A stretch of 64,000 nucleotides of DNA from Patescibacteria group bacterium (GCA_029260935.1 JAJDCJ010000012.1:33315-97314); one strand, 5' to 3'. Shown: positions 1,897-43,639, counted from the stretch's first letter. Translations and numbers: made by a program. Notes: generated by a model from the letters alone, not told the origin.

Positions 1897-1950
1897 ACTC
1901 CTCCGTCTACTGGATGATGTTAGGTCCTATGTTTTGGTATACTAAAACAT

Positions 1951-2463: not shown

Positions 2464-2547
2464 GGTGCGGTAGTTTTGGTTCGTCCGATGAGGACGAACG
2501 ATTTGCTCACGGTGTGTACTTAAACCTCTTTGTGGTTATAACTTTTT

Positions 2548-2590
2548 CCACCATTACGGATGTCTGACATCCGTAATGGTGGGGCTTTTT
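2548..2590. terminator. perfect hairpin CCACCATTACGGATGTCTGACATCCGTAATGGTGG followed by a T-run
   Basis: Inverted repeat read directly; sits between convergent genes. Confidence 0.6.
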
Positions 2591-2618
2591 TGCTAAAAAT
2601 CTCACAGAATATTAAAGG

Positions 2619-3437: not shown

Positions 3438-4153
3438 ATATTCACTGCCTTTGGGTATATTTTTGTTAATGCGTGTTCTTTACAATCGTGTGGACGAGCC
3501 GAACATACATAACGTCCATACAAAACGAGCCCATTATTTACGTACTGCCAGTCTTTTTTAGGAACCAGTGCCTCAAGTTCTTTTGAAATCTTCGTTAAAT
3601 CATTACTATCTGCTAAATCAAACCGCTTTGCAAAACGCTTCACATGAGTGTCAGTAGGAATACCCTCCCATATATTAAACAGCTCACCCAAAATAACATT
3701 CGCTGTCTTGTAGGCTACCCCAGGGAGACGTTCAAGCTCCTCTTTACTGCGCGGTATACGTCCACCAAAATCATCTATAATCATTTTTGCAGATCCAATA
3801 ATTGCCTTTGTTTTATTCCTATAAAACGGAATAGATGAAAGTTCCCGCTCCAGGACACTCGGTGTTGCTCCAGCAAAGTCTTTGGCTGTACGATATTTTT
3901 TAAAAAGAGTTTTCGTTGTGTTATTTACTGCTTTGTCAGTGCATTGCGCGCTCAACATCACCGCCACCGCAAACTGGAACTGCGTACGGTACCGAAGCTC
4001 GCTCTTGGGGCGAGGGTACATCTTTTTTAGTGCACCTACTATCGCCCGAGCGCGAGTACTTCTTTTATTCCGCGCCGAACTCCTTGAGGTCGTTGAGGAC
4101 TTCTTCTGCGTGGATTTCCGGTTTAACTTTTTCATAGATTTTGGCAACCTCAC
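3416..4153 (-). CDS. nth: endonuclease III-like HhH-GPD glycosylase; probable true start near 4021 (MYPRPKSEL)
   Basis: LPGVAYKTANVILGELF HhH motif. The annotated N-terminal basic extension overlaps bcp by 89 bp, so an internal start is likely. Confidence 0.65.
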   Translation of the reverse strand: MRLPKSMKKLNRKSTQKKSSTTSRSSARNKRSTRARAIVGALKKMYPRPKSELRYRTQFQFAVAVMLSAQCTDKAVNNTTKTLFKKYRTAKDFAGATPSVLERELSSIPFYRNKTKAIIGSAKMIIDDFGGRIPRSKEELERLPGVAYKTANVILGELFNIWEGIPTDTHVKRFAKRFDLADSNDLTKISKELEALVPKKDWQYVNNGLVLYGRYVCSARPHDCKEHALTKIYPKAVNIWPRTKK

Positions 4154-4535
4154 CTTCAGGGTTTATTAAAAATGACGTACGCACAATACCCATATACGCT
4201 TTACCCATCATCTTTTTTTCCTGCCATACGCCGTACTTGGTAACTGTCTCACCCGACTCATCGGCAAGTAAAGGGAATGGCAAACTATATTTTTCGGCAA
4301 AGCGTTTGTGGCTTGCCACTGAATCTTTAGAAATACCCAGCACGTCAGCGTGCATGTTCTCAAACTGCGGAAACGTGTCACGGAGCATGCATGCCTCTTT
4401 TGTGCACCCCGGAGTGTCGTCTTTTGGATAAAAATAGAGTAACGTCCAGCGCCCGCGGTACTTGGAAAGCGTATGAGACTTCCCCGCTTGGTCAGGCAGG
4501 GTAAAATCGGGAGCACTCTTCCCAACAGCAATCAT
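4065..4535 (-). CDS. bcp: thiol peroxidase / peroxiredoxin Bcp
   Basis: FYPKDDTPGCTKEAC peroxidatic Cys motif; 156 aa. Confidence 0.8.
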   Translation of the reverse strand: MIAVGKSAPDFTLPDQAGKSHTLSKYRGRWTLLYFYPKDDTPGCTKEACMLRDTFPQFENMHADVLGISKDSVASHKRFAEKYSLPFPLLADESGETVTKYGVWQEKKMMGKAYMGIVRTSFLINPEGEVAKIYEKVKPEIHAEEVLNDLKEFGAE

Positions 4536-4548
4536 ATCCTTGAGTATA

Positions 4549-5298
4549 TCACGAACCCTTTTCTTCTTTTTTGTTTTCTTTTTCTTTTTCGCTTATTTCT
4601 TTTATTTTTTCTGCTTCTTTTTCAACTTGTTTATCTGCGGTTCGTGCCGTTTTTTCAGCAATATTTCGTTTGACATAAAGGTTCATCAGTGAAAATACCA
4701 CCATACTGGCAAAAACAACACCAACAATGTTTACAAAAAGAAACACAGAAGCGCCAATTACTACATCCCAATTAAGTGCAGCAAGTCCTACACCCATTGA
4801 AGCAACCGGCGGAATAATAGCCACAGCAACGGCAATACCCGGCAATGTCGCACTCAACTCAGGTTTAATCAGTGTGTAGGCAACGGCAAAACCTGCAACT
4901 ATAGCGATTGCAACCGATACAAGTGTTGTGTGTGTGCGCAATAACACTTCGGGGGTAATAGTGTCACCAATTCCGAAAAATAGCGCCGCTAAAAATGAAG
5001 CGAGTAATCCAAGAATAAGCGCCTTTGCAAGTGTCCTGGTTGCGCGAGCAATAAGAACATAATCACTCATTACGACCGAAAGTGAGAGTGAGAGTATAGG
5101 AAATAAAATGGGAGCAATCAGCATACTGCCGATGACTACCGCGGGGCTATTTTCAAGCACACCGAATGTTGCCATAAGCACTGATAAAATAACAAGGAAA
5201 AAGAAATCAAAGTTCGGTGTTGATGCTTCAATTAACTTTTTTACTGCAACTGATTTGTCATGCTCTGATATTGCGCGAATGTGATTAAGAAAACCCAT
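4549..5298 (-). CDS. DUF389-like integral membrane protein with K/E-rich C-terminal tail
   Basis: Multiple TM helices and a charged tail EKEAEKIKEISEKEKENKKEEKGS. Confidence 0.4.
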   Translation of the reverse strand: MGFLNHIRAISEHDKSVAVKKLIEASTPNFDFFFLVILSVLMATFGVLENSPAVVIGSMLIAPILFPILSLSLSVVMSDYVLIARATRTLAKALILGLLASFLAALFFGIGDTITPEVLLRTHTTLVSVAIAIVAGFAVAYTLIKPELSATLPGIAVAVAIIPPVASMGVGLAALNWDVVIGASVFLFVNIVGVVFASMVVFSLMNLYVKRNIAEKTARTADKQVEKEAEKIKEISEKEKENKKEEKGS

Positions 5299-5328
5299 GT
5301 ATATCTGTAGTTATTTTAAAAAACTTTT

Positions 5329-5796
5329 CTATAGAGCATGATTTTCAACAACATCTTGGATACGGGTATTTTTTGTGCGCTCAAGGTAGAAAAGCCCTAT
5401 TGATAATAAGAATAGCATAGTTGAGAAAAGCAGTGAGAGGAGGCAATATTGACAGTACGCGTTGATAATAAATGCCTGAAGATAGAGGAAATATAGTGAG
5501 AGTATGAAGCCCGGAATGGTGAAAAAAAGGAAAAGTTGTGCCAGGTGAAGTTTTTTGTCTGAAAAACCCCATAGAGCAAAACCAAATATCGCTGAATAGA
5601 AAAAGACACCAAAAATGGCAAGAGGAATTCCAAAAACGCGCGAATAAGAACTTGCAGCAACCAAGTCGCATCCCTGAACAAAGTTACACACTGGAGAAAT
5701 ACCCGCAAGTGCGGTGTAGGCAAGGTACCCCGCGTCTATAATCCCAAGAAAACTAAAAAGGGTAAGGCCTGAGAAAATCCATATACGCGTATTCAT
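5329..5796 (-). CDS. vitamin K epoxide reductase (VKOR)-family membrane thiol oxidoreductase
   Basis: 4-TM protein with CNFVQGC and CQYC motif pairs typical of VKOR/DsbB-type proteins. Confidence 0.55.
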   Translation of the reverse strand: MNTRIWIFSGLTLFSFLGIIDAGYLAYTALAGISPVCNFVQGCDLVAASSYSRVFGIPLAIFGVFFYSAIFGFALWGFSDKKLHLAQLFLFFTIPGFILSLYFLYLQAFIINAYCQYCLLSLLFSTMLFLLSIGLFYLERTKNTRIQDVVENHAL

Positions 5797-5841
5797 GGGT
5801 TCAAGTATACTGTAAAAAAAATTTTATAAACTCCCCTTTTA

Positions 5842-6258
5842 ATGTTTTGTAGGTATACTATATGTATGGACAAAAAACCACCTAACGAAGAAGAATTAAA
5901 GGCAAAACTCACTGAGGAAGAGTATGCAGTACTTCGCGGTGGAGGAACAGAAGCGCCGTTTAGCGGAGCGCATCTTAATGTAGAAGGAGACGGTATTTTT
6001 CAGTGTAAAGTGTGCGACAACCAACTGTTTGCAACTGGTACAAAATTTGACTCCGGTACAGGGTGGCCAAGTTTTGATAGTGCTATTCCTGGCGCTGTTA
6101 CCATACTGAGAGATACGTCCCATGGCATGGAGCGCTCTGAGGTAGTATGTGCACAATGTAATTCACACCTCGGTCATGTGTTTGATGACGGCCCAACCAC
6201 GACCGGAAAACGTTATTGTATAAACTCAGTCTGTCTCAATGTAGAAGAGAAAAAATAA
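5842..6258 (+). CDS. msrB: peptide-methionine (R)-S-oxide reductase MsrB
   Basis: CxxC...CxxC zinc motif plus GTGWPSF and RYCINS catalytic-region motifs. Confidence 0.85.
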   Translation: MFCRYTICMDKKPPNEEELKAKLTEEEYAVLRGGGTEAPFSGAHLNVEGDGIFQCKVCDNQLFATGTKFDSGTGWPSFDSAIPGAVTILRDTSHGMERSEVVCAQCNSHLGHVFDDGPTTTGKRYCINSVCLNVEEKK

Positions 6259-6287
6259 CTTCTTTAGTTACGGTCTTTATATAGAGA

Positions 6288-8066
6288 TTATTTTCCTTTT
6301 GCACGTGATGATTCGTTGAGAACCTTTTTACGTAACCTAACGTTGTGTGGAGTAATTTCCAAATACTCATCTTCACTCATTATTTCCATACCACGCTCAA
6401 TGGTAAGTTCCCACGCAGGAGTCAGTTGTATAGCGTCATCATTTCCTGAGGATCGTACGTTGGTGAGGTTTTTTCCTTTAGTAGGATTGGCAACCATTTC
6501 TTCTCCTTTTGAAGTGTTCCCAATTACCTGACCTTCATACACTTCAGTTGCTGGAGGAATATAGATTACACCGCGGTCTTGTAAGTTCCACAAAGCATAG
6601 CCAAGTGCTTTTCCTGTTGCCATTGAGGTCATTGATCCCACTTGGCGCTTTTTAATTTCGCCCACAAACGGCTTAAATCCAATAACGCGACTTGAGAGTA
6701 TTCCATCTCCTTTCGTATCCACCACAAACTGGTTTTTATATCCTAAAAGACCTCGTGTTGGGCCTTCTAGCGTAATACGTACAGCATTGGTTCCTTCAGT
6801 GCGCATATCTTTCATTTGAAAACCACGTCTTCCTAATTTTTCAATAACCGTTCCCTGAAACTCAGCAGGCGTATCAATAATAACCTCTTCAAATGGCTCA
6901 GTTTTCTTTCCATCCTCTTCTCGTATAATCACGCGCGGTTGAGAAATCTGCATTTCATACCCTTCTCGGCGCATATTCTCCAAAAGTACTGCAATATGTA
7001 ATTCTCCACGACCTGAAACGTCAAACATATCGGGGCTTGTGAAATTAATTTTAAGTCCCACGTTTACTTCAAGTTCTTTCTCCAAACGCTCGCGTAGCTG
7101 GCGACTCGTTACAAATTTTCCATCACGCCCGGCAAGAGGAGAATTATTTACTAAAAAGTTTAATGTAATGGTAGGCTCATCAACGGCAATTGCAGGAAGC
7201 GCCTCTGTTGCCTGGTTAACACTCACCGTCTCACCAATAAAAATATCAGGGAGCCCTGCCAGCATGACAATGTCACCAGCTACTACTTCCTCAACTTCTA
7301 CTTTTTCAAGCCCTTTAAAGTTAAACATTTTTGTAACTTTTCCCTGTCTAATTTTTCCATCCATATCTTTTATAAAAACAGTAGATTGTGGAGAGAGCGT
7401 TCCGTCGTACACCCTACCAACTGCTAACCTACCAAGGAAATTGTCGTACCCGAGGTTAAACGGCTGGAAACGAAATGTCTTATCAACTGAACCAGACGCA
7501 GGAGGCACTTTTTCCAAAATCATATCCAAAAGAGGTGTGAGGTCTTTTGAGTCATCGCTCAAGTTTTTCTTTGCAACACCATCTCTCCCTATTGCATAGA
7601 TGACTGGAAAACTAGACTGCTCATTAGTCGCACCTAATTCCAAAAAGAGCTCTAGCACCTGTTCTTCTGCACGGTCAGGATCAGCAGCCGGTTTGTCAAT
7701 TTTATTTAAAATAACAATCGGTTTGAGCCCAAGCTCCAGTGATTTTTTTAATACAAAACGAGTCTGTGGCATCGGACCTTCTTGGGCATCAACAACGAGC
7801 AATACTGAGTCAATTGAACGTAAGACCCGCTCCACTTCACTACCAAAGTCGGCGTGCCCTGGTGTGTCAACGATATTGATCTTTGCGTCCTTATAGTTAA
7901 GTGAGCCGTTTTTTGCATAGATAGTAATACCGCGCTCTTTTTCAATAGAATCGGTGTCCATGGAAAAACCTTCTGCAACCATGCCGGTCTGGCGCATCAA
8001 AGCATCGGTAATAGTTGTTTTACCATGGTCAACGTGAGCAATAATTGCGATATTATACGTTTTCAT
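6288..8066 (-). CDS. typA: translational GTPase TypA/BipA
   Basis: NIAIIAHVDHGKTT G1 motif, DTPGHADF G3 motif, length 592 aa. Confidence 0.9.
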   Translation of the reverse strand: MKTYNIAIIAHVDHGKTTITDALMRQTGMVAEGFSMDTDSIEKERGITIYAKNGSLNYKDAKINIVDTPGHADFGSEVERVLRSIDSVLLVVDAQEGPMPQTRFVLKKSLELGLKPIVILNKIDKPAADPDRAEEQVLELFLELGATNEQSSFPVIYAIGRDGVAKKNLSDDSKDLTPLLDMILEKVPPASGSVDKTFRFQPFNLGYDNFLGRLAVGRVYDGTLSPQSTVFIKDMDGKIRQGKVTKMFNFKGLEKVEVEEVVAGDIVMLAGLPDIFIGETVSVNQATEALPAIAVDEPTITLNFLVNNSPLAGRDGKFVTSRQLRERLEKELEVNVGLKINFTSPDMFDVSGRGELHIAVLLENMRREGYEMQISQPRVIIREEDGKKTEPFEEVIIDTPAEFQGTVIEKLGRRGFQMKDMRTEGTNAVRITLEGPTRGLLGYKNQFVVDTKGDGILSSRVIGFKPFVGEIKKRQVGSMTSMATGKALGYALWNLQDRGVIYIPPATEVYEGQVIGNTSKGEEMVANPTKGKNLTNVRSSGNDDAIQLTPAWELTIERGMEIMSEDEYLEITPHNVRLRKKVLNESSRAKGK

Positions 8067-8155
8067 ATAAAAAGCGGCCTCGGGCCGTCAAGGCCATAAT
8101 AATAGCGCGTCTGAACCTTTTTTCCTAACTTATTCCTACAAACTAGTTCTTTTAT

Positions 8156-8443
8156 CTATTTATCTATTGTCCCACCGATAAAGTTTGCAATTTTAAATGC
8201 TGGCTTCGCCATCAAAGACGCAACCAACACAGGAATAAAGAGACGAGACGCACCTGCTAAAAGTTCATCCCAATCTTCTTCAGGAACAATCGGTGGTTGT
8301 ATCGTTTCAATGTCTGTGAGATAATCACCAGCTTCCCATACGCCCCATAAAGCCAATAAAGTGGGAATAAGCAAAGTTATTGCGCCAATTCCAAGTGCAA
8401 ATTTATCTCTAGCTTTTAGTTTTTCCGTATAATTTTCTGCCAT
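8156..8443 (-). CDS. small membrane protein, unknown
   Basis: 95 aa, one central TM segment. Confidence 0.3.
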   Translation of the reverse strand: MAENYTEKLKARDKFALGIGAITLLIPTLLALWGVWEAGDYLTDIETIQPPIVPEEDWDELLAGASRLFIPVLVASLMAKPAFKIANFIGGTIDK

Positions 8444-8755
8444 ATAAATTTAATAGTTAATTTAAAATAAATTATTAATCAAAGTATATCTACCAATGAC
8501 AGTATCTTACCACGATAAACGACTATTTGTCAAGTATTAAAATCGTGACTACCAGACCCAAAATAAGGGTAATGGGTTAAGTCGCTTACCTCCTTCTAGT
8601 ACTCTGCACACCGGAAACCTGGAGTAAACCATCCATATATTGCTAAACATCAGCAATATAGACAACCGCTTCTTTTTCAACCGTCCGAAACTCGCTCCAC
8701 ACATTCAGTATAGTCGCAAAAAGTGACAGACTGACAAAAACAAATAAGAATATCT

Positions 8756-8959
8756 CTAACCTTTACGCCTATGTTTTGCAAACTGAAAACCGCGAACTGC
8801 CAAGTATCCGGCAATCAATACTGCAACCCAGCTCACCCACACCGGAATAGCCACACCCGCAACAACCGCCTCCCATTGGTAGATACCGCGTACCGCGTGC
8901 AGTACCGCAATAATGCTAAAAATAACCGCAACGAGCTGATAGTATGTTTTTGTATTCAT
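8756..8959 (-). CDS. small 2-TM protein, unknown
   Basis: 67 aa, two hydrophobic helices. Confidence 0.3.
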   Translation of the reverse strand: MNTKTYYQLVAVIFSIIAVLHAVRGIYQWEAVVAGVAIPVWVSWVAVLIAGYLAVRGFQFAKHRRKG

Positions 8960-8987
8960 ATGAAAAAAGTATACCCCACCTTACTGT

Positions 8988-9776
8988 CTACCTGGCATTC
9001 AGCTGTGTATACTCCACAACACCCTCATTGGAAAAGTCTGGCCGGCTGTCGGGGATGACGGCGTCGTAAAATAGAGCCGGAATACCGATGTCTGCCACAT
9101 AGACCGTGCCGGACAGTGCTTTGCCCGCTTCGGTTTCAAAGAGCTTTTTTGGAACGGCAAGGGTGAGTGTTGCATCTGCATGCACACATACTCCGGTGCA
9201 CTCACCTGTGGTAGCGTCCGCACCCGACGGAAGGTCGTAGGAAATGACGCGGGCCTTGCTTTTTTGTATTACCTCAATGAGTGTTACAAAAACTCCGCGC
9301 GGAGCACCGAGAAGATGGTACCCAATAAGCGAGTCAATAATAACGTCCGCACCGGTTATTTTTTTCTGCATCTTTTCTTTCTCCTGTTCTTTGTAAACAG
9401 AAATTGGGATATTCATTTTTGTAAGGAGCGCACAGTGGTGTGCGGGGTCCGGTTTTATGTTTTCATCCGCAAGCACCACTGAAATGTTTTTCCATCCGTG
9501 GTTAAAGAGGTGTCGCACAGCGGAAAGCCCGTCGCCTCCTTTATTCCCCTTTCCGCACACCACCACAACCGCATCTTTTTTTGAGATTTTTTCTTTTTCA
9601 AACACACTCACCATATGGAACCCCGCCAGCTCCATCATTTGCCGTATCTCAAGACCGCCCGCAACCGCAACGCGGTCAAGCTCTTCTATTTCTTTTGTCG
9701 TGTAGTGCATAGTTTTAGCGTTTACTAGCCCCATTATACCCATCAAATCCACCCTATGATGGACGCCCAACGTCAA
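8988..9776 (-). CDS. NAD(P)H-hydrate epimerase (YjeF N-terminal domain)
   Basis: VVVCGKGNKGGDGLSAVRHL motif; likely start at the internal MGLVNAKT. Confidence 0.65.
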   Translation of the reverse strand: MTLGVHHRVDLMGIMGLVNAKTMHYTTKEIEELDRVAVAGGLEIRQMMELAGFHMVSVFEKEKISKKDAVVVVCGKGNKGGDGLSAVRHLFNHGWKNISVVLADENIKPDPAHHCALLTKMNIPISVYKEQEKEKMQKKITGADVIIDSLIGYHLLGAPRGVFVTLIEVIQKSKARVISYDLPSGADATTGECTGVCVHADATLTLAVPKKLFETEAGKALSGTVYVADIGIPALFYDAVIPDSRPDFSNEGVVEYTQLNAR

Positions 9777-9780
9777 TCAT

Positions 9781-10473
9781 TTATTGAGTGAGGGAAAAAC
9801 TCTGCGTGGCAAAGTGGCTCACCCACCCGTCAAAGTCAACCAAAAGGAGCTTCGCTGTGTATTTTTTCCCTGACTGTAATTCTGGCGTGCGCGCCGGTGG
9901 ACCAACAGAAAGAGACGCGCGTTGTGTATGCGGATAGGTCCACTGTGTCTCGCGAGTATAGAGCGCCGCGCAGGTCTCTCCCTCCTCATCTTCAACGGCT
10001 AGAAAATAAATAAGTGCGTCAAATTTTTGCGCGTCTTTCCATTTGAACGTTACCGTGCCGTTTGTATGCGGCAAAACACTGAGCACAGTGCGGTCATACA
10101 CGGTGCGTTCTTTAATCGTAATTTCGGGCGAAGCGAGTAGGCGCCCGTGGTGGTTTTTTGCGGTTATTTTGTAGTGCTCTCCAACCTGCGCGTCAGGTAC
10201 AGTAGCCCGTAGAACCACACTCCCTGAAAAATTCTGGGCAGGTATGGGTGTTCTAGGTTCCCATTGAGCGCTTCTTCGTGCCACGACCTGATACTCACTC
10301 CGCCCGGGCCACGGGGTATAAATCAGAGAAACACTGCCGTCTGTTTCCCTTAACCCGCAGGCAATGACTTCCTGATTGGCGTAGAGGCGGACAATAGGGC
10401 GAGCTAGAAAACCCACATACCGCGTCATCCAGCGCATGTTCCATACTAAAAAACGCAGAGCGACGCGCTTCAT
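9781..10473 (-). CDS. hypothetical protein
   Basis: 230-aa ORF tightly packed with its neighbours; no recognisable motif. Confidence 0.4.
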   Translation of the reverse strand: MKRVALRFLVWNMRWMTRYVGFLARPIVRLYANQEVIACGLRETDGSVSLIYTPWPGRSEYQVVARRSAQWEPRTPIPAQNFSGSVVLRATVPDAQVGEHYKITAKNHHGRLLASPEITIKERTVYDRTVLSVLPHTNGTVTFKWKDAQKFDALIYFLAVEDEEGETCAALYTRETQWTYPHTQRASLSVGPPARTPELQSGKKYTAKLLLVDFDGWVSHFATQSFSLTQ

Positions 10474-10474
10474 A

Positions 10475-10858
10475 TTATGTGGGGTTGTTTTCTAATTTTT
10501 CCAGAAGTATTTTTTTTAATCCTTCCATATCGCTTACTCCCTCAATCTCTTCCGCATTCACCAAAATGTTTAACCCGTCTTCAGATTCGGTCAAAATAAC
10601 CGGCAGAGCAGTGTCCGTATGGTGTGGATATTTTTTATGAAACTCATCTCGGTGGAGAAATGTCTTTTCATTCGGCAGTGAATCAAGAAAGTCCCGCCAC
10701 GGCGACTTCATAGCCACCGCACCATACGTCACCATACAGAGGTTGCAGGCATACTTGCTCGGTGTCACGATACGCGTAATAAAATCTTCTGCCGCAGCTT
10801 TCAGCGTTGCATCGGAATTATAAACAAAAATTATCTGAGGATTTTCTTTGTCACTCAT
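10475..10858 (-). CDS. hypothetical protein with a CNLC motif
   Basis: 127-aa ORF whose stop and start are adjacent to the neighbouring genes. Confidence 0.4.
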   Translation of the reverse strand: MSDKENPQIIFVYNSDATLKAAAEDFITRIVTPSKYACNLCMVTYGAVAMKSPWRDFLDSLPNEKTFLHRDEFHKKYPHHTDTALPVILTESEDGLNILVNAEEIEGVSDMEGLKKILLEKLENNPT

Positions 10859-11556
10859 CCGATAAGCATATCAGACTTTATATTCGGGATATCAAAAAAA
10901 TGTAATAATTCCTCAGGTGTATCAACTACTGCAACCGGGTTTCCTTGCTCTAAACGGGCGCGAGAGTGAAAGCCCCACGTTACAGCAACACTTTGTATAC
11001 CGGCACTATGCGCTTCGTGTATATCCCCAAGTGTATCCGTAATAAACCAGTAGTTTTCTTTTGGTAGCGCATACAGGGTAATCAATTCTTCTAGTTTTTC
11101 AATCTTACTGGTGCTTTTTTCCATCCCCCATACATGTTTGAAAAGTGAATGTATATTATTTTGCCGTAGGTACCCACAGAGCGCATCATCAAGACTAGAC
11201 GAAACAATAGAAAATGCAGAGTTTTTATGTAGTGTAGTAAGTGCTCGTTTCAAGGGTTTGCCGATAGACATTCTCTGTAGCCCTTCTGTATATTTTTTAT
11301 AAAAAATATACTTATCTACTGTGCTGATTTCCTTGGTGTGTATGGCGTTGTGAACATTACCATCAAACCAGCTACGATATTCTTCGCGAGTAAGCGTAGG
11401 TAACGGGTCCTTAAAAAGGTTAAAGGTTAACTCAAACGTGTCTTCAATAACCCCGTCAAAATCAAAAATAAGAAGCTTCTTCATAGTACAGTTTTGTTCA
11501 CGCTCTGAAATTATATATGCTTTATGAACGGCTCCTGCCGGTGGTGTGGCAGGCAT
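10855..11556 (-). CDS. HAD-superfamily hydrolase/phosphatase
   Basis: LLIFDFDGVIEDT motif I of the HAD fold. Confidence 0.7.
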   Translation of the reverse strand: MPATPPAGAVHKAYIISEREQNCTMKKLLIFDFDGVIEDTFELTFNLFKDPLPTLTREEYRSWFDGNVHNAIHTKEISTVDKYIFYKKYTEGLQRMSIGKPLKRALTTLHKNSAFSIVSSSLDDALCGYLRQNNIHSLFKHVWGMEKSTSKIEKLEELITLYALPKENYWFITDTLGDIHEAHSAGIQSVAVTWGFHSRARLEQGNPVAVVDTPEELLHFFDIPNIKSDMLIG

Positions 11557-11983
11557 GCAGGCGGTGCATATACCTGTTCACCACGAACACCGAAAGTGGG
11601 AGCAGGAGCGCCATTTGAAGCACGGGAGAGAGCCCGACATTCAGCCCCGGAATAATAGGCATGGTGTTCAGGTAAAACCAACGATCAAAAACAAAAGCTT
11701 TGTATTCCACAAACACGGCAATGAAGATACCTAAAATAAAGAGCCCTGCATAGTCGGTAATGCGAACGCTTTGAAACCACACCAAGCTCTTTTTAAACAA
11801 GGCAACAAGGAGCACCGCGCCGAACGTGTAGCGCACATCACCAAGGGTGGCCCATAGGGTAATAGGAACGCTCCCTGAAAGTCCCTCATATCCTCCGTAT
11901 AAAGAGAGGTGTGAAGATTCCCACACAAAGTGAAACACAAAAGAAACCACGGCAAGCAGACCATAAATATAGAGTGTTTTCAT
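11522..11983 (-). CDS. integral membrane protein, unknown
   Basis: 153 aa, four hydrophobic helices. Confidence 0.4.
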   Translation of the reverse strand: MKTLYIYGLLAVVSFVFHFVWESSHLSLYGGYEGLSGSVPITLWATLGDVRYTFGAVLLVALFKKSLVWFQSVRITDYAGLFILGIFIAVFVEYKAFVFDRWFYLNTMPIIPGLNVGLSPVLQMALLLPLSVFVVNRYMHRLHACHTTGRSRS

Positions 11984-12017
11984 GCACCTTCATAATACCT
12001 GAATTACTACAAAAAGC

Positions 12018-12269
12018 TCACAGTGATATTATTTTGAGTAAGTCTAACTTTTTATTACGAGACAACTTCTTGATTTGAGCTTCGCGTTTTTGTGCGGTGC
12101 CACGGCTAGGATGTTTCTCACTGTATACAATTTTCCGAGCGCCGTGTGAGCGAGTATAGTGCCCACCGTCGCCCTGTATATGTTCTTGTAAGCGTCGTGC
12201 TACGTCTGTAGTAATCCCCGTATAAAAAGAGTCGTCAGCGCATTCCAGTATATAGACGTAATAGTGCAT
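12018..12269 (-). CDS. GIY-YIG domain protein
   Basis: YVYILECADDSFYTGITTDVARRLQEH matches the GIY-YIG signature. Confidence 0.75.
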   Translation of the reverse strand: MHYYVYILECADDSFYTGITTDVARRLQEHIQGDGGHYTRSHGARKIVYSEKHPSRGTAQKREAQIKKLSRNKKLDLLKIISL

Positions 12270-12284
12270 TTCTTTAACTTTACA

Positions 12285-12827
12285 CTATCGCATCAAAGTA
12301 GACTTAAAAAGTTTTTCTTGTGTTGCTTTCTTTAAAACATCATCAAGTGAATGCCGAAACCAATATGTATAGTGCTCTTTGTGATTGTGTATATCTTCTT
12401 GTAGTGCTTTGAGTTCAATCCATTTCCAATCATCCGCCTCTTCAGGGTGTAGCACTGGAGGTTGGTCGGATATTCCAACAAGGACGTGGTCATATTCGTG
12501 TTCAATAAGACCATTAGGAAATTCTGTCTTATACACAAATGAATGCACCTCAGTAAGGTCGCAATCAAAGCCCATTTCCTCTTGAAGTCTGCGGTGGGCG
12601 GCATCTAAAGTACGTTCATTGGGCCGTGGGTGACTACAGCATGTATTTGTCCATAACCCACCTGAGTGGTATTTATCTTGCGCCCTTTTCTGAAGTAGCA
12701 TTCGCCCGTCAGGATGAAAAATAAATACTGAAATTGCGCGGTGCAGTTTCCCCTGCCTGTGAGCTGCAAGTTTTTCCATCGTTCCAATGTGTTCGTCGTT
12801 TTCGTTTACAAGAATGACCTCTTCCAT
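12285..12827 (-). CDS. idi: isopentenyl-diphosphate delta-isomerase, type 1 (Nudix)
   Basis: HRAISVFIF and WTNTCCSHP motifs plus a glutamate cluster. Confidence 0.85.
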   Translation of the reverse strand: MEEVILVNENDEHIGTMEKLAAHRQGKLHRAISVFIFHPDGRMLLQKRAQDKYHSGGLWTNTCCSHPRPNERTLDAAHRRLQEEMGFDCDLTEVHSFVYKTEFPNGLIEHEYDHVLVGISDQPPVLHPEEADDWKWIELKALQEDIHNHKEHYTYWFRHSLDDVLKKATQEKLFKSTLMR

Positions 12828-12966
12828 GCGTGTATTGTATCAAAATAGATATATAACCGAATTAACGACTGAACTAACGACAGAGTTATCTAAAGAGAAA
12901 GATTATCTTGAATAATCTGTTCATTTGGAAAACCGAGTAAATCATTTTTCCTATACCATTCTTGCC

Positions 12967-12995
12967 GACGCGATTTTTACGCTTCTGACTTCTTG
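12967..12995. repeat. 29-bp direct repeat GACGCGATTTTTACGCTTCTGACTTCTTG (copy 1)
   Basis: Exact match to the copy at 13657-13685; the two copies bracket the P-loop kinase gene. Confidence 0.9.
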
Positions 12996-13064
12996 ACGTA
13001 TGTGGTTTTACCAGATCCCGGCAAGCCACAGATGAGGTACGTGGTTGATTTTTCGTGCATATAT

Positions 13065-13613
13065 CTATAGTCCAGTGTCTTTTTTTATTAACGCTACAGT
13101 AGCTTCAAGCGTAAAATCGTCGGTGATGATTTTCTCGCCAGGAAAGCCGATTATGTCGTTTTCTTTGTACCATCGTGCCATTTGCTCCCCTGTAAACTCA
13201 TCTCGTTTTGGTTTTGTTTGATGGCGTTTTATTGTTTCCTCAAGAGAAATATTGAAGTAGTAATAGAACGTATTATTGGGGTGTTGCTTGTTTAATTTCA
13301 GGAAAAAGTCTTTATAGACATCAAACACAAAATTTCCCTCAAGAATTACATGAAAACCTCTTTCTAAGCAAAACATCACTGTTTGATAGATAAGGTCTGC
13401 GTTGTGTGTCCGGGGACGCCCTCTGCATTCTCGCAAGACTTCTCGACGAAGATAGTCTTGTTCAATAATCGCGATGTTTTCTTCTGACTGTTCGCGCAGC
13501 TTTTTGGCAACAGTACTTTTCCCACTCCCAGAACTGCCACGCAGGATGATAAGTTTGGTATCCATTGCTTTATCATAACAAAGGTTAATGGATGCAAACA
13601 TATCTAGTACCAC
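13065..13613 (-). CDS. P-loop nucleotide/nucleoside kinase-like protein
   Basis: LIILRGSSGSGKSTVAKKL Walker A motif; likely start at the internal MDTKL; size about 165-180 aa. Confidence 0.6.
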   Translation of the reverse strand: MVLDMFASINLCYDKAMDTKLIILRGSSGSGKSTVAKKLREQSEENIAIIEQDYLRREVLRECRGRPRTHNADLIYQTVMFCLERGFHVILEGNFVFDVYKDFFLKLNKQHPNNTFYYYFNISLEETIKRHQTKPKRDEFTGEQMARWYKENDIIGFPGEKIITDDFTLEATVALIKKDTGL

Positions 13614-13656: not shown

Positions 13657-13685
13657 GACGCGATTTTTACGCTTCTGACTTCTTG
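13657..13685. repeat. 29-bp direct repeat (copy 2)
   Basis: Identical to 12967-12995. Confidence 0.9.
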
Positions 13686-13707: not shown

Positions 13708-13761
13708 CGAATTCGAGCTTTTTTAAAATCGAGCGTTTCACTTGTAAAAAACTCGAATTCG
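13708..13761. repeat. long inverted repeat with 21-nt loop
   Basis: Arms CGAATTCGAGCTTTTTT and AAAAAACTCGAATTCG give about 16 bp of pairing. Confidence 0.7.
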
Positions 13762-13770
13762 GCTGGCCGT

Positions 13771-13838
13771 CTCGAGCTAGAACCGCGGTCGGTTAAGCCC
13801 CACAAGGTTATTTTTAACTATTTTATTTTACCAATTCG
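13771..13838. repeat. conserved 3' flank of cassette locus A (about 80% identical to 42631-42700)
   Basis: CTCGAGCTAGAACCGCGGTCGGTTAAGCCCCACAAGGTTATTTTTAACTATT against CTCGGGCTGGAACTGTGGTCGGCTAAGCCCAGTAAGGTTATTTTTAACTATT. Confidence 0.8.
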
Positions 13839-13868
13839 ACGGGTCTCGAGCACCTTAATCTCATATAT

Positions 13869-15176
13869 TCAAAAAGATAAAACACTCAGCATGCTCTCAA
13901 TTGATTCTCGTAAGTCGCTTTCATTAAAATCAGGTCTAGCTGTTTCATCTGCATGATGAATTTTATTTCTTATGGATACAGGAAGAGACTCAATAACAAC
14001 ATCTCCGACTTTACATGTTGAGTGAGAAATAGTCGCAGTAAACTGACTTGCTTTTCTTACGTTCGAATCTCCATCTAATTTCCTTTTTAGTTGACTGTAG
14101 CCCCCTTCTTTTACCTCCAAAGCAGCGAAAAGCTCGATATGTAATAGTTCATCGACGATATCATAAACTTTATAGTTTATTAAATTTAAACTGGGACCGC
14201 CTCCAATCATGTTTTTATAAAACCCAATCTTTTCACCTATCTGCTCCTTATTTCTGTCAATCTTGTAACACACGCTTTTCCCGTCCCTCAATCCTTGCAG
14301 GATGTACGGAGAATGAGTTGCTATCACAAATTGAATATCTAAACCCGTAAACACATCCGTTAGAAACTGAATATATTTCTTCTGCCACTTAGGATGCAAA
14401 CTTGTCTCTGGTTCATCAATTAGTATTAAAGAACCGTCTAAATTTTCTAACTCTTTTAAAAGGTGACCGACTCTATAAATTATTTGTTTCTCTCCTGTGC
14501 TAAATGTACCCAAACCAACTTCGTTACTGTTTTCGTCTGTGAAGACAATCTTCAGTTCACCATCTTGAGGCTTAACAGTTTTGAATGTTTTTGTCCCATT
14601 AAACATTTTTTCAAATGCATTTGTAAATCTTTCAATTTTACGAGTATGTTGCTCTGGAATTTTTCCATGCTCTGCAATGTAGTCATCGATAAAAGTCGCA
14701 TCCTGGGTCTTAAGATTAACTAACAGTTGAGGAATTACCTCAGATAAATCCTCAGACTCTTCTCTTGGGTTCCTTTTCTCATCTATGGTTATTGCGGTTG
14801 CAGAAGTAACTTTAGGATTTTTAAAACCAACAGCAACCCTATCGTAAATAACTTTTAAATCTTTTGGGTGATTATCACTGCTAATTCGACTGTCCTCTAC
14901 ATTGATTTTCATTTCGGTGTACTCTTCGCCATCCAGGAGAGAAAGTACGGCTTTTATTTCATTACTGTCCACGTGTATTAAGTAACCCTCTTCTGTCTTT
15001 CCCAAGCTGTTATAAATCAAATCAAGAATGGACGTCTTTCCATATCCATTCTCACCAGCCAAAAAGAAGAAAGAGGGTATATTCTTTTTATCCTCAGACT
15101 TTTCAAAAAGTGTTAAAACTGAATCCCCTTTGAACGCAGGATGTGAAGTAAATTTGATTTGTTGAAGTTTTTTCAT
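13869..15176 (-). CDS. ABC/SMC-type P-loop ATPase (AAA_21/AAA_15-like), second gene of a two-gene operon
   Basis: Walker A LAGENGYGKTS, signature-like FSTGEKQ, Walker B LILIDEPETSLHP, H-loop ATHSP, and a 120-aa C-terminal extension with no TOPRIM or HNH motif. Confidence 0.75.
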   Translation of the reverse strand: MKKLQQIKFTSHPAFKGDSVLTLFEKSEDKKNIPSFFFLAGENGYGKTSILDLIYNSLGKTEEGYLIHVDSNEIKAVLSLLDGEEYTEMKINVEDSRISSDNHPKDLKVIYDRVAVGFKNPKVTSATAITIDEKRNPREESEDLSEVIPQLLVNLKTQDATFIDDYIAEHGKIPEQHTRKIERFTNAFEKMFNGTKTFKTVKPQDGELKIVFTDENSNEVGLGTFSTGEKQIIYRVGHLLKELENLDGSLILIDEPETSLHPKWQKKYIQFLTDVFTGLDIQFVIATHSPYILQGLRDGKSVCYKIDRNKEQIGEKIGFYKNMIGGGPSLNLINYKVYDIVDELLHIELFAALEVKEGGYSQLKRKLDGDSNVRKASQFTATISHSTCKVGDVVIESLPVSIRNKIHHADETARPDFNESDLRESIESMLSVLSF

Positions 15177-15679
15177 TTTTTATCATCAGTATTCCAAAAT
15201 CTCTCAACCTCTTCCTGTTTCTTTTTCCTTTCTGAATCCAACTCATTCCTAAATGACTGCCCCAATTCATTTGCAAATCTATTTTCAATTTCTTCAACTC
15301 TTAGGTATGCTTCACGACCTTCATTTTGGTGTTCTTTACTGCTTTCGTCATCTTCACTTTCTAATGATAGATAATGTGAAGAATTTTGTCTGCTGAGATT
15401 GTACGCGTAATCTTTCCAATCTTCAGCTAAACGAACCAATTTAGATTGATCATGTTTATGTTTTTCTTTCAATCGAATGTACCAGTCTTTCATTCTTACT
15501 ACTTCTGGTTCATCTTCTTCCAACCCATAGGCAACCTTAGCTGTTGTTCTGTATGAATTAAGCATTAAGTCTGCAAATTCCTCGTATTTTTCTATCTTTT
15601 TTGCAGGTGTCGAATCAAGCACTAGTTTTGCTATGTACCAAATTGCCACGATTATTAAAATTGTATAAATAAAACTCAT
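15173..15679 (-). CDS. membrane-anchored coiled-coil protein, first gene of the operon (start corrected to MSFIYTIL)
   Basis: N-terminal TM helix IYTILIIVAIWYIAKLVL followed by a highly charged E/K/D-rich region; overlaps the ATPase gene by 4 bp (ATGA). Confidence 0.55.
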   Translation of the reverse strand: MSFIYTILIIVAIWYIAKLVLDSTPAKKIEKYEEFADLMLNSYRTTAKVAYGLEEDEPEVVRMKDWYIRLKEKHKHDQSKLVRLAEDWKDYAYNLSRQNSSHYLSLESEDDESSKEHQNEGREAYLRVEEIENRFANELGQSFRNELDSERKKKQEEVERFWNTDDKK

Positions 15680-15780
15680 ATCTTTTATTCTATCGCAACC
15701 ACCATATTTATATAGTAAGTTGCCTGCAACGCTCTTCGAGCGCACGAGATCGCTATATTCCTCGAGCTAGCTCGATTTGG
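15680..15780 (-). promoter_or_regulatory. conserved 5' flank/promoter of cassette locus A (homologous to 43350-43447)
   Basis: Shares TTGCGATAG(A/T)ATAAAA(G/A)AT immediately before the ATG, plus CTCGTGCGCTCGA and GAGCTAGC blocks, with locus B. Confidence 0.7.
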
Positions 15781-15935
15781 CTGGGGGACAGGGACTCGAA
15801 CCCCGATTGATGGCACCAGAAACCATAGTCCTACCGACAAGCGAGTGAGGGTCACAGGAAAGTTTACTTTCATATGACCGAACGAGCGCAGTCGGAAAGC
15901 TTTGCTTACCACTGGACGATCCCCCAAGGCGTTAG
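15781..15935 (-). tRNA. tRNA-Gln(CUG) interrupted in the D-loop by an 81-nt insertion
   Basis: The exons fold into a canonical 74-nt tRNA with U1-A72, G73, D-arm GUCC/GGAC, anticodon loop UUCUGGU and T-loop UUCGAGU. The insert starts AGCAAAGCUU. Confidence 0.6.
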
Positions 15936-20931: not shown

Positions 20932-21022
20932 AACAGACTTTTTTGGGTAAGATACTGAGGTGTTGGGGTACGTAAAACTTTCCTTGGCACTACTCAGACA
21001 AAGTCAGTAGTGTGCCGTTGTA

Positions 21023-21157
21023 AGCAAAGCTTGCACCGGCGGCGTTCTAACAAAATATACTCACGGGCGGTTTTGTTCTTTCAGAAAAATGTAAACGAGC
21101 TTTCATTTTTCTTCTATCACAAAACCACGCGCTTCGCGCAATTTCCGTGAGCAACTT
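21023..21157 (+). mobile_element. about 135-nt inserted element beginning AGCAAAGCTT, flanked by a 9-bp duplication of the tRNA-Thr 5' end
   Basis: GCCGTTGTA occurs at 21014-21022 and again as the first 9 nt of the tRNA at 21158-21166. Confidence 0.5.
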
Positions 21158-21932: not shown

Positions 21933-22090
21933 CTCCGGCGAAGCCGGACCCAGCTCCGCCGGGCGGTCCGCATATGTAAGCAAAGCTTCCTCTCATCGAT
22001 CACTCGGAAGAGTAACCGCATTCACTCTTCCCTCGCTTCTCTCGATAGTAAAGAAAAACAGTACGCAGGTACTGTTTGTTCTTTCATATG
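21933..22090. repeat. repeat-family copy: GCTCCGCCGGGC motif, GTAAGCAAAGCTT, internal hairpins, ending at the tRNA-Asp 3' end
   Basis: Shares GCTCCGCCGGGC and GTAAGCAAAGC with the 48786-49225 array, and TTTGTTCTTTCA with 21023-21157. Confidence 0.6.
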
Positions 22091-24161: not shown

Positions 24162-24401
24162 TTATTTGGTAGGTCCCTTGGTACTGCCATGCCCACGACA
24201 CCCTTCGCATTTTTTAAATAGGTCTTCTACGAACCAACCGCCACGATTTCCGCAATGTTGACACCCTCCACCTTCACACTTCCTACATATATGCCACGAT
24301 TTTCCATACCCAGACCCCTTACATTTTGTACAAATAGTAGGATCAAAATCTTTTTTGTATTGAGTTTCAAACATATGGTGCCGACGGCAGGAATTGGTCA
24401 C
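24162..24401 (-). CDS. small DnaJ-type zinc-finger protein (four CxxCxGxG repeats); likely start MFETQYKK
   Basis: CTKCKGSG, CRKCEGGG, CQHCGNRG, CEGCRGHG; the annotated N-terminus overlaps the tRNA-Met-derived repeat. Confidence 0.55.
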   Translation of the reverse strand: MTNSCRRHHMFETQYKKDFDPTICTKCKGSGYGKSWHICRKCEGGGCQHCGNRGGWFVEDLFKKCEGCRGHGSTKGPTK

Positions 24402-24768
24402 CCGTCGCTAACCATTTTACTTCATAAACTCGTAAAATGCTAATCGCGCTCCACCCCGACTCGGCAACGTGTGCTCCGCCACGGCTTCGCACCCTCTGTC
24501 TTTCAATTCCTTCCGTCTTGTTCAAATTGTAAAAAATACTATGCATGCGCATAGTATTTAACAATTTGTGCCGACGGCAGGAATTGGTCAGGAGTCCATG
24601 AAAATTAGAGTCACTGCCGTTCCTTAATTTTCTATGGCTCACGACCCTGGCTCGGCGACAAGCACTCGTCGTACCTCCTCGTCTTGTATACCGCCTCCGC
24701 CTTTCAATTCCTGTCAATCAGGCACATTGTAAAAAACACCATACTCAAACGTATGATGTTTTACAATG
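24367..24768. repeat. two tandem about-200-bp units, each ending with a copy of the tRNA-Met 3' end (GTGCCGACGGCAGGAATTG)
   Basis: The 19-mer occurs at 24367, 24568 and 24768 (the last is the tRNA itself). The units share CTCGGC, CTTTCAATTCCT and TTGTAAAAAA blocks. Confidence 0.8.
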
Positions 24769-24844
24769 TGTGCCGACGGCAGGAATTGAACCTGCGACCT
24801 TAGCTTTATGAGTGCTACGCTCTAACCAACTGAGCTACGCCGGC
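24769..24844 (-). tRNA. tRNA-Met(CAU) elongator-type (could be the k2C Ile2 species)
   Basis: Acceptor GCCGGCG/CGUCGGC, anticodon loop CUCAUAA, T-loop UUCAAUU. Confidence 0.75.
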
Positions 24845-24896
24845 AAACGAGGAAGATAATGGAAGTGCGGAGCAATTACATTATTTCCGAGTGCAG

Positions 24897-25070
24897 CCGA
24901 CGCAAGCTCCGCTTACGCCGGCAAACTGCTTACGAGGATAGCGCGAAGCGCGTGTTTTTGCGAGTGAAGAAAAACAGAAGCTTGTTTATGTTTTTCTGAG
25001 AGAGCAAAAAAACTCGAAAGCGTATTCTGTCAGAGTGGGCCCGACGCAAGCTCCGCTTACGCCGGCAAAC
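24897..25070. repeat. two copies of a 30-nt acceptor-stem minihelix repeat CCGACGCAAGCTCCGCTTACGCCGGCAAAC
   Basis: Copies at 24897-24926 and 25041-25070. Read on the minus strand they give GCCGGCG-UAAGCGGAGCUUG-CGUCGGC, reproducing the tRNA-Met acceptor stem. Confidence 0.75.
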
Positions 25071-25121: not shown

Positions 25122-25450
25122 TGTTGCGGGGCCCAGAATCGAACTGGGGTCTGGAGGTTCTTTTACACTCAATGTTTCCAAAGAGAATGGACTATACCAT
25201 GGTCCACGTGGGACCCTCCCATTATAGTCTCTGAACCTTCCGAGCTATATCAAACGATATGGCTTGGCTTGGCTGCTGATTACCGAATCAACTTGCTTTT
25301 TAAACCATCGCACTCACCCTCTCAGGTCATGCTGTGGTGCAAGAAGCTCTAACGGCTTTCCAGCAATTTAGAGAGTTTTCCACCGTCTGTTGCCAAACGG
25401 GGTCACGTTCTTCACATGAGCCTCCCGAGGTACCTCTCCTCTACCCCGCG
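25122..25450 (-). ncRNA. about 330-nt structured RNA with tRNA-like T-arm and acceptor end; possible tmRNA (ssrA), unconfirmed
   Basis: 3' end CCCAGUUCGAUUCUGGG-CCCCGCA-A-CA pairs with 5' CGCGGGG. The region has no ORF and smpB is present in the window. There is no G3-U70 pair and no classic tag. Confidence 0.35.
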
Positions 25451-25537
25451 CTATCAGCATATGACATTAAGCTCTACTCGTCAACAAAGTAGCGAGATTA
25501 ACGTGACGCGCTCGTATTCTTGAGTCAATAACCACTA

Positions 25538-42545: not shown

Positions 42546-42630
42546 AATATTTTTGATTAGTTATTACCTGGTTTCAAAGTAGTCTTTCTATTTTGGTCTG
42601 TCAACCGTTTCAGGTAAAAGTGAAAATTGG

Positions 42631-42700
42631 CGGGCTACCTCGGGCTGGAACTGTGGTCGGCTAAGCCCAGTAAGGTTATTTTTAACTATTTCAGTTTATC
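42631..42700. repeat. conserved 3' flank of cassette locus B (homologous to 13771-13838)
   Basis: See the 13771-13838 entry. Confidence 0.8.
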
Positions 42701-42728
42701 AACATTAAGGTCCTCAAGCTCTTTTGTA

Positions 42729-43349
42729 TTATTTGTCTAAATTTGAAAGTTTTTTTAACTTAATACCAGCACTTGACGTTGTGATTTTTTCAATCTTTTG
42801 TAAAAGGATCTTAATTCTATCGACAGTAACCTTTGGAGAGTAGGGGGTATTATACAGATCCATACCATTTCCATACTCAGTTAACCTATCTTTTACATAC
42901 TTATTAGGGTCGGCATTCTCAAACGAACCAGTCACAAATTTTGCTATTGTTTGTACTGTAGTTCTTGCTCGCTCTTCTGTTGTGATCCAAAAATAATTAG
43001 CATTTCTTCTCGCAAAATTCTCTATTAATTCTCCATGATCATAAAAAGAGTTGATGAGCTTTAGTTCATCTTGATCAAAATCGCTTATAAATAAATGTGC
43101 GTATTTTTTCCAATTACCTGACTTAATAACTGATGTTGGTAAGTCGCTCAGATTTCCACTAGAAATTTTGTCGTCGATAATCGCAATTTGTTCTTCAGCG
43201 GTCCTAATTTCTGTGAGCAGAACTCTTGCCGCTTGTATTTTGTTACTCTTCTTTTGCGAGAAATAAGTAAGAATAGCAACACTCCCTGTCAAAATGGTGG
43301 CGAATCCAGCAAATCCATTTGAATTAAGAATTGAAATTAAAATTTCCAT
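42729..43349 (-). CDS. cargo gene of cassette locus B: membrane-anchored protein of unknown function
   Basis: N-terminal TM helix GFAGFATILTGSVAILTYF followed by a 180-aa soluble domain. Its ATG is preceded by TTGCGATAGTATAAAAAT, the same element found upstream of the locus A operon. Confidence 0.55.
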   Translation of the reverse strand: MEILISILNSNGFAGFATILTGSVAILTYFSQKKSNKIQAARVLLTEIRTAEEQIAIIDDKISSGNLSDLPTSVIKSGNWKKYAHLFISDFDQDELKLINSFYDHGELIENFARRNANYFWITTEERARTTVQTIAKFVTGSFENADPNKYVKDRLTEYGNGMDLYNTPYSPKVTVDRIKILLQKIEKITTSSAGIKLKKLSNLDK

Positions 43350-43447
43350 ATTTTTATACTATCGCAATTAATAAATTTGTATAGCGAACTGCCTACAAAC
43401 TGCCTCGAGCGCACGAGGAATATAGCTTCTTCGTGCTAGCTCTAAAC
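43350..43447 (-). promoter_or_regulatory. conserved 5' flank/promoter of cassette locus B
   Basis: Homologous to 15680-15780; the overlapping ORF 43368-43622 is probably spurious. Confidence 0.65.
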
Positions 43448-43468
43448 GGCGGAGACGCAGGGATTCGG
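43448..43468. repeat. partial copy of the tRNA-Ser 3' end (GCGGAGACGCAGGGATTCGG)
   Basis: Matches 43641-43661, the tRNA T-arm and acceptor, at 20 of 21 positions. Confidence 0.75.
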
Positions 43469-43639
43469 TCACCTTTACTAAGTATTTTACTCCTCTCGTT
43501 CGTAAAACACTAAGTGACGCGACCCCGTCGGCTACTACTGCGTATTCTCGCAGGCTTCGCAGTAGCCTCTTTTCGAATCCCTCATCGTCCGTAGAATGTA
43601 CAAGCCAAAATGCTATTCGCATCAGGGCTTACCATTTTA

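Follow-up and report, generated by a model that had tools for sequence, protein, structure and literature searches.

The subject of this analysis is a 64,000-nt stretch of DNA from a Patescibacteria group bacterium (GCA_029260935.1 JAJDCJ010000012.1:33315-97314), hereafter called the window, and within it a locus of two overlapping genes, which code for a 435-aa ABC-type ATPase and for a membrane-anchored protein of 168 aa, here named TM168. The window is of Paceibacteria type, with the top matches of its PyrG protein (62-70% identity) belonging mostly to Paceibacterota, Parcubacteria and Adlerbacteria records of metagenome-assembled genomes, and with Rfam a group I intron and a transfer-messenger RNA were detected in it as well. 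Its G+C minimum (0.365) coincides with the ATPase region. In an initial annotation, made from the sequence, the two genes had been described as an operon in a tRNA-adjacent cassette and as a candidate undescribed defence-like system. Both open reading frames (ORFs) were confirmed (Table 1), as was their overlap of 4 bp, an ATGA at 15173-15176. Directly downstream of the locus lies an AAA_33/zeta-like kinase gene (13065-13613, Pfam).

Table 1. Coordinates of the locus, its borders and related elements; positions are those of the window unless stated otherwise.
Feature	Coordinates	Strand	Basis or remark
435-aa ABC ATPase (PtuA/OLD type) with C-terminal HEPN-like domain	13869..15176	-	core of the finding
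ABC ATPase head, aa 1-315	14232..15176	-	invariant columns in 103 sequences and secondary structure of the model
HEPN-like domain at the C-terminus, aa 322-435	13872..14213	-	
Predicted RNase active-site motif R403-N-K-I-H-H408 (Rx4H)	13953..13970	-	conservation and position in the model
TM168, 168-aa membrane-anchored protein	15173..15679	-	ORF, overlap, conserved motifs
Non-coding region upstream of TM168 (5' end of the cassette, putative promoter)	15680..15777	-	conservation
tRNA-Gln(CUG) with 75-nt D-loop insertion at 15832-15906	15778..15926	-	sequence reading; upstream border of the variable region
Approximately 95-nt element, downstream end of the cassette, two GCTCGAGAC copies about 75 nt apart	13754..13855	-	directly 3' of the ATPase gene
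Second locus, same non-coding ends, other cargo	42625..43470	-	sequence matches at both ends
GTAAGCRRAGCTT site	21014-21042	+	
GTAAGCRRAGCTT site	21976-21988	+	
GTAAGCRRAGCTT site	24895-24925	-	
GTAAGCRRAGCTT site	25040-25070	-	
GTAAGCRRAGCTT site in locus L042	1490-1520 (of L042)	-	

The head of the 435-aa protein contains the complete set of ABC motifs that had been annotated, namely Walker A (GENGYGKTS), a signature (STGEKQ), Walker B (LILIDEPE) with the D-loop and the H-loop (ATHSP, H288), in addition to the Q-loop (Q150) and a beta/helical insert at about aa 60-215. The residues N43, K47, Q150, S226, E229, D254-E257 and T287-H288-S289 were invariant in 103 homologues. The protein matched Pfam AAA_21 (6.7e-18) and AAA_15 (6.3e-17), the top PADLOC model was PtuA (7e-29), followed by AriA, and the top NCBIfam model was the retron Ec78 PtuA (2.6e-19, far under the equivalog cut-off). 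A profile of the 103 homologues matched the retron Ec83/Ec78 ATPases, PtuA, AriA and OLD in the PDB, and all of these matches stopped at about residue 310-330; similarly, among the PADLOC matches listed no model reached further than about residue 322. Membership of the ATPase in the defence-associated OLD/PtuA/AriA branch of ABC ATPases is thus supported by sequence comparison. Housekeeping identities were considered and rejected: RecF gave 18.7 bits against an NCBIfam cut-off of 172, the NCBIfam models of ABC transporter ATPases stayed far under their cut-offs, and RecN was likewise ruled out. The nearest ATPases are all defence proteins.

The final approximately 115 residues of the protein are conserved throughout the family. 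R403 is the sole invariant residue beyond the ATPase core in the 103 sequences and stands in a motif I-R-N-x-I-H-H, of which N404, H407 and H408 are kept in at least 90% of the sequences, as is E348. HEPN domains are recognised by an Rx4-6H motif that closes the penultimate helix and in which a polar residue (N/D/H) directly follows the arginine, by an acidic residue located in a preceding helix, and by an insertion that separates the two (PMC3710099). The series R403-N404...H408 has this form. In the structure models, among which that of the isolated C-terminal domain had a predicted local distance difference test score (pLDDT) of 93.8, the Rx4H motif closes the helix 398-407 and is followed by a loop and the last helix 419-434; E348 is borne by the helix 343-357, and residues 358-397 form an insert of helix and beta elements before the motif helix, so that the acidic residue and the insert are also found in the models. 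Moreover, individual family members weakly matched the PADLOC models Cas13c (3.8e-6), Cas13a and CARF_HEPN and the Pfam family Ribonuc_2-5A. With this combination of conserved residues and modelled topology, the C-terminal extension is probably a HEPN RNase domain.

The domain profile matched 1118 representatives of 50%-identity clusters, 630 of them at E <= 1e-10, and in the best 150 of these 1118 matches the domain was located at the C-terminal end, most of the proteins being 430-500 aa long. ATPases with this domain occur in several phyla with a patchy distribution. No covering Pfam, NCBIfam or PADLOC model was found for the effector domain of the family, and the isolated domain gave no significant PADLOC match; alignment of its profile with hhalign against one HEPN_Swt1 protein (from L002) and against an AAA_13 protein was not informative.

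Three results weigh against the assignment as a HEPN RNase. Foldseek with the domain model returned no match, a sequence-profile search of the PDB with the domain returned none either, and none of the Pfam HEPN models matched the protein of the window itself. These searches without significant HEPN match would suit the alternative that the domain has a regulatory, oligomerisation or nucleic-acid-binding function in an ATPase of DNA metabolism or housekeeping, as would the existence of non-catalytic HEPN-like domains; these, however, typically do not have the Rx4-6H motif (PMC3710099), whereas here R403 is invariant and the asparagine and histidine are kept in at least 90% of the sequences. The gene is moreover patchily distributed and not present in syntenic relatives, and its closest ATPase relatives are defence proteins throughout, which makes a non-nuclease role very improbable.

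The second gene of the locus was analysed for its structure and for its association with the ATPase. Mechanically, the TM168 ORF opens at a GTG at 15745; the start that yields 168 aa was taken as correct because all of 16 homologues (16/16) begin at that ATG-encoded methionine. As annotated initially, the protein has one N-terminal transmembrane (TM) helix, with residues 3-21 being strongly hydrophobic (mean Kyte-Doolittle value 2.37), and is highly charged in the remaining 143 aa (43% charged residues). The alignment of homologues revealed invariant motifs in this soluble part, e.g. EEIENRF and LAEDWKDY, which argues that TM168 is a real gene under selection. Its homologues form 17 clusters, and no Pfam, PADLOC or NCBIfam family was matched.

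The initial annotation had treated the ATPase and its small membrane partner as one system, and this view was not sustained by comparison of the neighbourhoods. A tblastn search for TM168 was performed in 18 other distinct loci of the ATPase family (17 entries of such loci, plus L248 and L249/L250) and was negative in all of them (0/18), including the closest homologues at 67-78% identity. The neighbours of these homologues were a helix-turn-helix (HTH) gene, a Bsp6I-type restriction enzyme and a methylase, i.e. a restriction-modification (R-M) system, in L248 (ATPase identity 78%); an unknown 124-aa protein and a phosphatase in L249 (77%); a tRNA-Gln(TTG) 230 nt upstream and a 543-aa protein, a serine recombinase and a terminase-like gene downstream in L005 (75%); a tRNA-Gln and a serine recombinase in L089 (71%); SOUL and nitroreductase genes with two tRNA-Ser upstream in L004 (71%); and a methylase, an HTH gene, 1127-aa and 201-aa proteins and a weak Sf6-terminase match in L001 (67%). 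In L002 from Leeuwenhoekiella (51%) ordinary genes were found, and another 10 loci of full length, drawn from metagenomes and from viral contigs of IMG/VR, had no neighbour in common. Apart from the serine recombinase of L005 and L089, no neighbour recurred across 16 distinct loci of the family. Six viral contigs of IMG/VR code for homologues that are of full length or bear the C-terminal domain, and more distant ATPase homologues occur in prophage contigs. Conversely, TM168 and the ATPase were found together in the window only: in the other four loci with TM168 the gene that follows differs from case to case, coding for a 210-aa TM protein in L008 (TM168 identity 92%), a 173-aa TM protein in L006 (64%), a 213-aa protein in L007 (57%) and, in L251 (63%), a membrane-anchored protein that matches Mrr_cat_2 weakly (4e-4, under the Pfam cut-off).

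A true two-component system, in which TM168 would act with the ATPase as sensor, anchor or effector, perhaps being one of several exchangeable effectors of the ATPase, would account for the ATGA overlap, which implies co-transcription and probably coupled translation, and for the co-directional gene close behind TM168 in five of five loci, as expected for a constant adaptor with variable effectors; the same 4-bp overlap is present in L008, and in L251 the downstream gene codes for the membrane-anchored Mrr-like nuclease. Such a system is nevertheless unlikely in view of the 18 ATPase loci without TM168, the occurrence of the ATPase family in several phyla as compared with only 17 clusters of TM168, and the lack of a match of TM168 to any defence-protein model. 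TM168 is co-transcribed with the ATPase here but is most likely a separate gene of the hotspot.

Two proteins of the compared loci were noted in their own right. The 543-aa protein of L005 (1839-3470, plus strand), without Pfam or PADLOC family match, ends in ...LRSSSIAHRKG with an Rx5H motif, and judged by this motif it could be a second HEPN-type protein of that island. Within the Bsp6I-type R-M cluster of L248, a 525-aa protein (1034-2611, minus strand) adjoining the ATPase homologue matches LexA_DNA_bind, Peptidase_S24 and DNA_methylase, an unusual fusion of a LexA-like domain with a cytosine methylase.

The setting of the locus was examined with relatives from a GTDB set, none of which is closer to the window than about 70% PyrG identity, i.e. 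the comparison is made above the species level. FtsE-FtsX-PyrG is kept in most of 80 Paceibacteria relatives, and within 10 kb of it none of the 80 carries the gene for the ATPase or TM168, or any of the cupredoxin, kinase and NUDIX genes that neighbour them in the window; the pair is thus not part of a syntenic core. The upstream non-coding region begins directly after the CCA of the tRNA-Gln and is 92% identical over 63 nt to the region upstream of TM168 in L008, where a tRNA 3' end precedes it by about 110 nt, and 71% identical to the second locus of the window. The conservation that had been ascribed to an own promoter of the operon was therefore found, and the promoter itself was not: a sigma-70 scan gave no excess of sites over shuffled sequence and none in 15680-15777, and a scan for consensus promoters and terminators likewise gave sites no commoner than in shuffled sequence.

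The second locus shares both non-coding ends, as had been stated initially. The match of 13756-13834 to 42625-42702, after the gene of the second locus, amounts to 80% over 79 nt, and that of 15677-15773 to 43347-43442 to 72% over 97 nt. Its cargo, located downstream of a tRNA-Ser, is an unrelated 206-aa TM protein (42729-43349) without Pfam, PADLOC or NCBIfam family match, and before this gene and its upstream region stands a stretch (43447-43470) in which the tRNA-Ser 3' end is copied in part. In the comparison of the window with L008, homology extends through the upstream region and TM168 (87% of nucleotides), is lost at the ATGA and returns 18 nt past the stop of the second gene, with the 210-aa gene in the position of the ATPase; this pattern indicates a clean replacement of the second ORF between the two. 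The approximately 95-nt element flanks the ATPase gene of L001 on both sides (5838-5945 and 7340-7440), its start is present after the 210-aa gene of L008, and more copies with 74-78% identity over 84-97 nt were found in L024, L053, L080 (two) and L085, whose PyrG proteins are only 63-67% identical to that of the window. Neither a consensus RNA structure (RNAalifold, 4 pairs only) nor an Rfam match was obtained for the element, by which an attC-like or structured-RNA reading was ruled out; it may be a putative recombination or protein-binding site that bounds the cassettes. Together with the tRNA-Gln beside the homologues of L005 and L089, these comparisons agree with the setting of swappable cargo at a tRNA that had been proposed, and at the level of sequence the locus is supported as a tRNA-adjacent variable region with exchangeable cargo.

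In a wider reading, Patescibacteria would possess a modular system with TM168 as its unchanging adaptor or sensor at the membrane, and the slot downstream of TM168 would take up interchangeable effectors, swapped at tRNA hotspots through recombination at the GCTCGAGAC-containing element. The slot may then hold the ABC-ATPase-HEPN protein here, the membrane-anchored Mrr-like nuclease in L251 and uncharacterised proteins in L006, L007 and L008. This would amount to a new integron-like organisation of defence genes in ultra-small genomes; the chance that it applies is considered slim.

The tRNA at the upstream border was read by eye, since neither ARAGORN nor Rfam called a tRNA at 15778-15926 and only a weak Rfam tRNA match covered the 3' part. 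An acceptor stem TGGGGGA/TCCCCCA, a D-stem GTCC/GGAC, an anticodon loop TTCTGGT and a T-arm CGGGG-TTCGAGT-CCCTG followed by GCCA were recognised. In this reading of ours, the gene that had been annotated as a disrupted tRNA-Gln does carry an insertion in the D-loop and otherwise appears to be a complete tRNA-Gln(CUG). Of 32 relatives scanned, 28 have an ordinary tRNA-Gln after pyrG, and the copy of the window is syntenic with these. In a relative at 66% PyrG identity (L078, 8247-8480, plus strand), a tRNA-Gln(TTG)-like gene carries a homologous D-loop insertion, the closing stem of which reads CTGTC/GACAG as compared with CCGAC/GTCGG in the window, i.e. with two compensatory pairs; it has a second insertion of about 95 nt in the T-loop and is directly followed by an intact tRNA-Gln. 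With 75 nt, the insert does not reach the size of a group I intron, and it is not mentioned in a survey of Patescibacteria tRNA introns (PMC13011429). An intron-like element or a pseudo-tRNA may be present here.

Additional tRNA-linked elements were observed elsewhere in the window. The motif GTAAGCRRAGCTT occurs five times compared with 0.34 expected; four copies lie at or just upstream of tRNA genes and the fifth (21976) about 100 nt from a tRNA-Asp gene on the opposite strand. Before tRNA-Thr(GGT), before tRNA-Met (two copies) and before the tRNA-Asp of L042, it caps a hairpin in which the 5' arm equals the first 7-9 nt of the tRNA and the 3' arm resembles the 3' acceptor strand, so that by its sequence the hairpin has the look of a minihelix of the acceptor stem. 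The 3' end of tRNA-Met (CAATTCCTGCCGTCGGCAC) is found three times downstream of the gene with a spacing of about 200 nt (24341-24788, minus strand), and that of tRNA-Ser is partly repeated about 180 nt downstream (43447-43640, minus strand); in each repeat unit, a T-stem 5' strand precedes the 3'-end copy by about 130 nt. These repeats could be serial att-like scars or elements that mimic tRNA 3' ends. In 25168-25500 (minus strand), Rfam recognises a group I intron (55.1 bits), behind which stands an apparent tRNA 3' half; the whole, not called by ARAGORN, looks by its sequence like an intron-containing tRNA of the type recently described in Patescibacteria (PMC13011429). Closer to the locus, at 12870-13040 (minus strand) and just downstream of the intact kinase gene, lies the remnant of another AAA_33 (zeta-toxin-like) kinase gene, a pseudogene with a deletion that retains the P-loop and the final approximately 45 codons. 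An exact direct repeat of 29 nt lies at its deletion junction (12967-12995) and upstream of the intact gene (13657-13685), and pseudogene and repeat are a further sign of rearrangement near the locus.

On balance, the 435-aa gene probably constitutes a self-contained, single-protein module of the abortive-infection type, consisting of a PtuA/OLD-type ABC ATPase and a predicted HEPN RNase effector. The architecture, the conservation of catalytic-type residues and the distribution of the family were seen directly, as were the mobile or variable settings and the fact that no partner gene is conserved. In addition to the searches of the C-terminal domain without HEPN match, several points speak against this explanation. 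An RNase and defence role of the family is drawn from the genes and from analogy. The 4-bp overlap with TM168 suggests translational coupling and hence may point to a local functional link. No recombinase gene was found in window positions 1-13,000 and no att-type duplicate of the tRNA-Gln 3' end in the window; without a recombinase near the operon, any mobility here would be historical. Finally, the phages of Patescibacteria, their triggers and the immune repertoire of these bacteria are poorly known.

The adjacency of homologues to serine recombinases, prophage genes and R-M systems, and the name of the nearest Pfam family, which points to a type IV toxin-antitoxin toxin (AAA_21, AbiEii), would also suit a toxin-like, selfish module by which integrated elements secure addiction or stabilisation, with the ATPase as safety catch and no anti-phage function. 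No conserved small antitoxin-like gene accompanies the gene in the family loci compared, and no backbone of a mobile element is left in the window that could be stabilised; such a module is given a low probability, and since addiction and defence are compatible roles, one need not exclude the other.

For the abortive-infection module, a mechanism can be proposed by analogy with PrrC/RloC, Septu and retron PtuA, PARIS AriA and OLD. The gene would have arrived as cargo of the variable region next to the tRNA-Gln and would have replaced an earlier sequence between the TM168 gene and the approximately 95-nt element. The N-terminal ABC ATPase would serve as sensor and switch. At rest, an oligomer formed via the nucleotide-bound ATPase heads would hold the HEPN domains apart or occluded and thereby inactive; a phage-derived trigger would shift the conformation of the ATPase, upon which two HEPN domains would build a composite Rx4H site; RNA, be it tRNA or another species, would be cut there without metal ions, and translation would be arrested.

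Comparison with known systems places the protein in a branch of ABC ATPases that act as sensors or switches tied to nucleases: OLD, PARIS and Gabija have a TOPRIM effector, Septu uses HNH, and PrrC and RloC use HEPN (10.64898/2026.07.10.737580; PMC3710099). By sequence profile and fold, the nearest ATPase is PtuA of Septu and of the type I-A retron. PtuA of Septu pairs with a separate HNH nuclease, PtuB, whereas the 435-aa protein has its HEPN-like domain in cis; the C-terminal region of PtuA has no counterpart, matches stopping at about aa 310, and no PtuB/HNH gene was found in the window or in the 16 related loci compared. PARIS AriA/AriB and OLD/Gabija differ in having a TOPRIM effector instead of the predicted metal-independent HEPN; no Pfam or PADLOC match to TOPRIM/DUF4435 was obtained for the protein or its neighbours, and the OLD/AriA matches stop at about aa 330. 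The initial annotation was accordingly right that the partner architectures of OLD, Gabija, PARIS and Septu are not matched and that TOPRIM and HNH are not detected, yet a nuclease module of the HEPN type is probably present.

PrrC and RloC resemble the 435-aa protein in that one polypeptide combines an N-terminal ABC-type ATPase with a C-terminal Rx4-6H (HEPN) RNase domain. RloC is a stand-alone gene and PrrC lies beside R-M genes, comparable to the L248 homologue, and both occur in mobile islands and prophages (PMC3710099). Membership in the PrrC/RloC family (AAA_13, PF13166) was rejected, as the 435-aa protein gave no AAA_13 match at E <= 0.1. RloC carries a long coiled-coil with a zinc hook, a part that the much shorter 435-aa protein probably lacks. 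An AAA_13 protein of the APEC O1 P2-like prophage (2e-111 to AAA_13), 738 aa long as compared with 435 aa here, was similar to the 435-aa protein in the Walker A region only; it is probably the APECO1_4465 cited in PMC3710099, its position being deduced from gi numbering. HEPN fused to an ABC ATPase is also present in the ERFG_01251-type proteins (Anantharaman et al. 2013, Table 1; PMC3710099), which, compared by description only, could be the same or a related family and are by the same description set apart by an extra HEPN/TOPRIM-NTD1 domain of about 240 aa, too large for the 435-aa protein.

Since the ABC-ATPase-HEPN fusion is thus already described for PrrC, RloC and others (PMC3710099), the locus is not an undescribed kind of system, contrary to what had been suggested, and it is the particular family that is uncharacterised. 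For annotation, the lesson is that the locus is not to be labelled as a two-gene system. If the prediction is true, there is a sizeable family of single-gene ABC-ATPase-HEPN RNases, with 1118 clusters in several phyla and in prophages, and a defence-like gene would be added in Patescibacteria. Moreover, a PtuA-type ATPase with HEPN in cis would then join the effector swaps (TOPRIM, HNH, HEPN) on the scaffold shared by OLD, PtuA and AriA.

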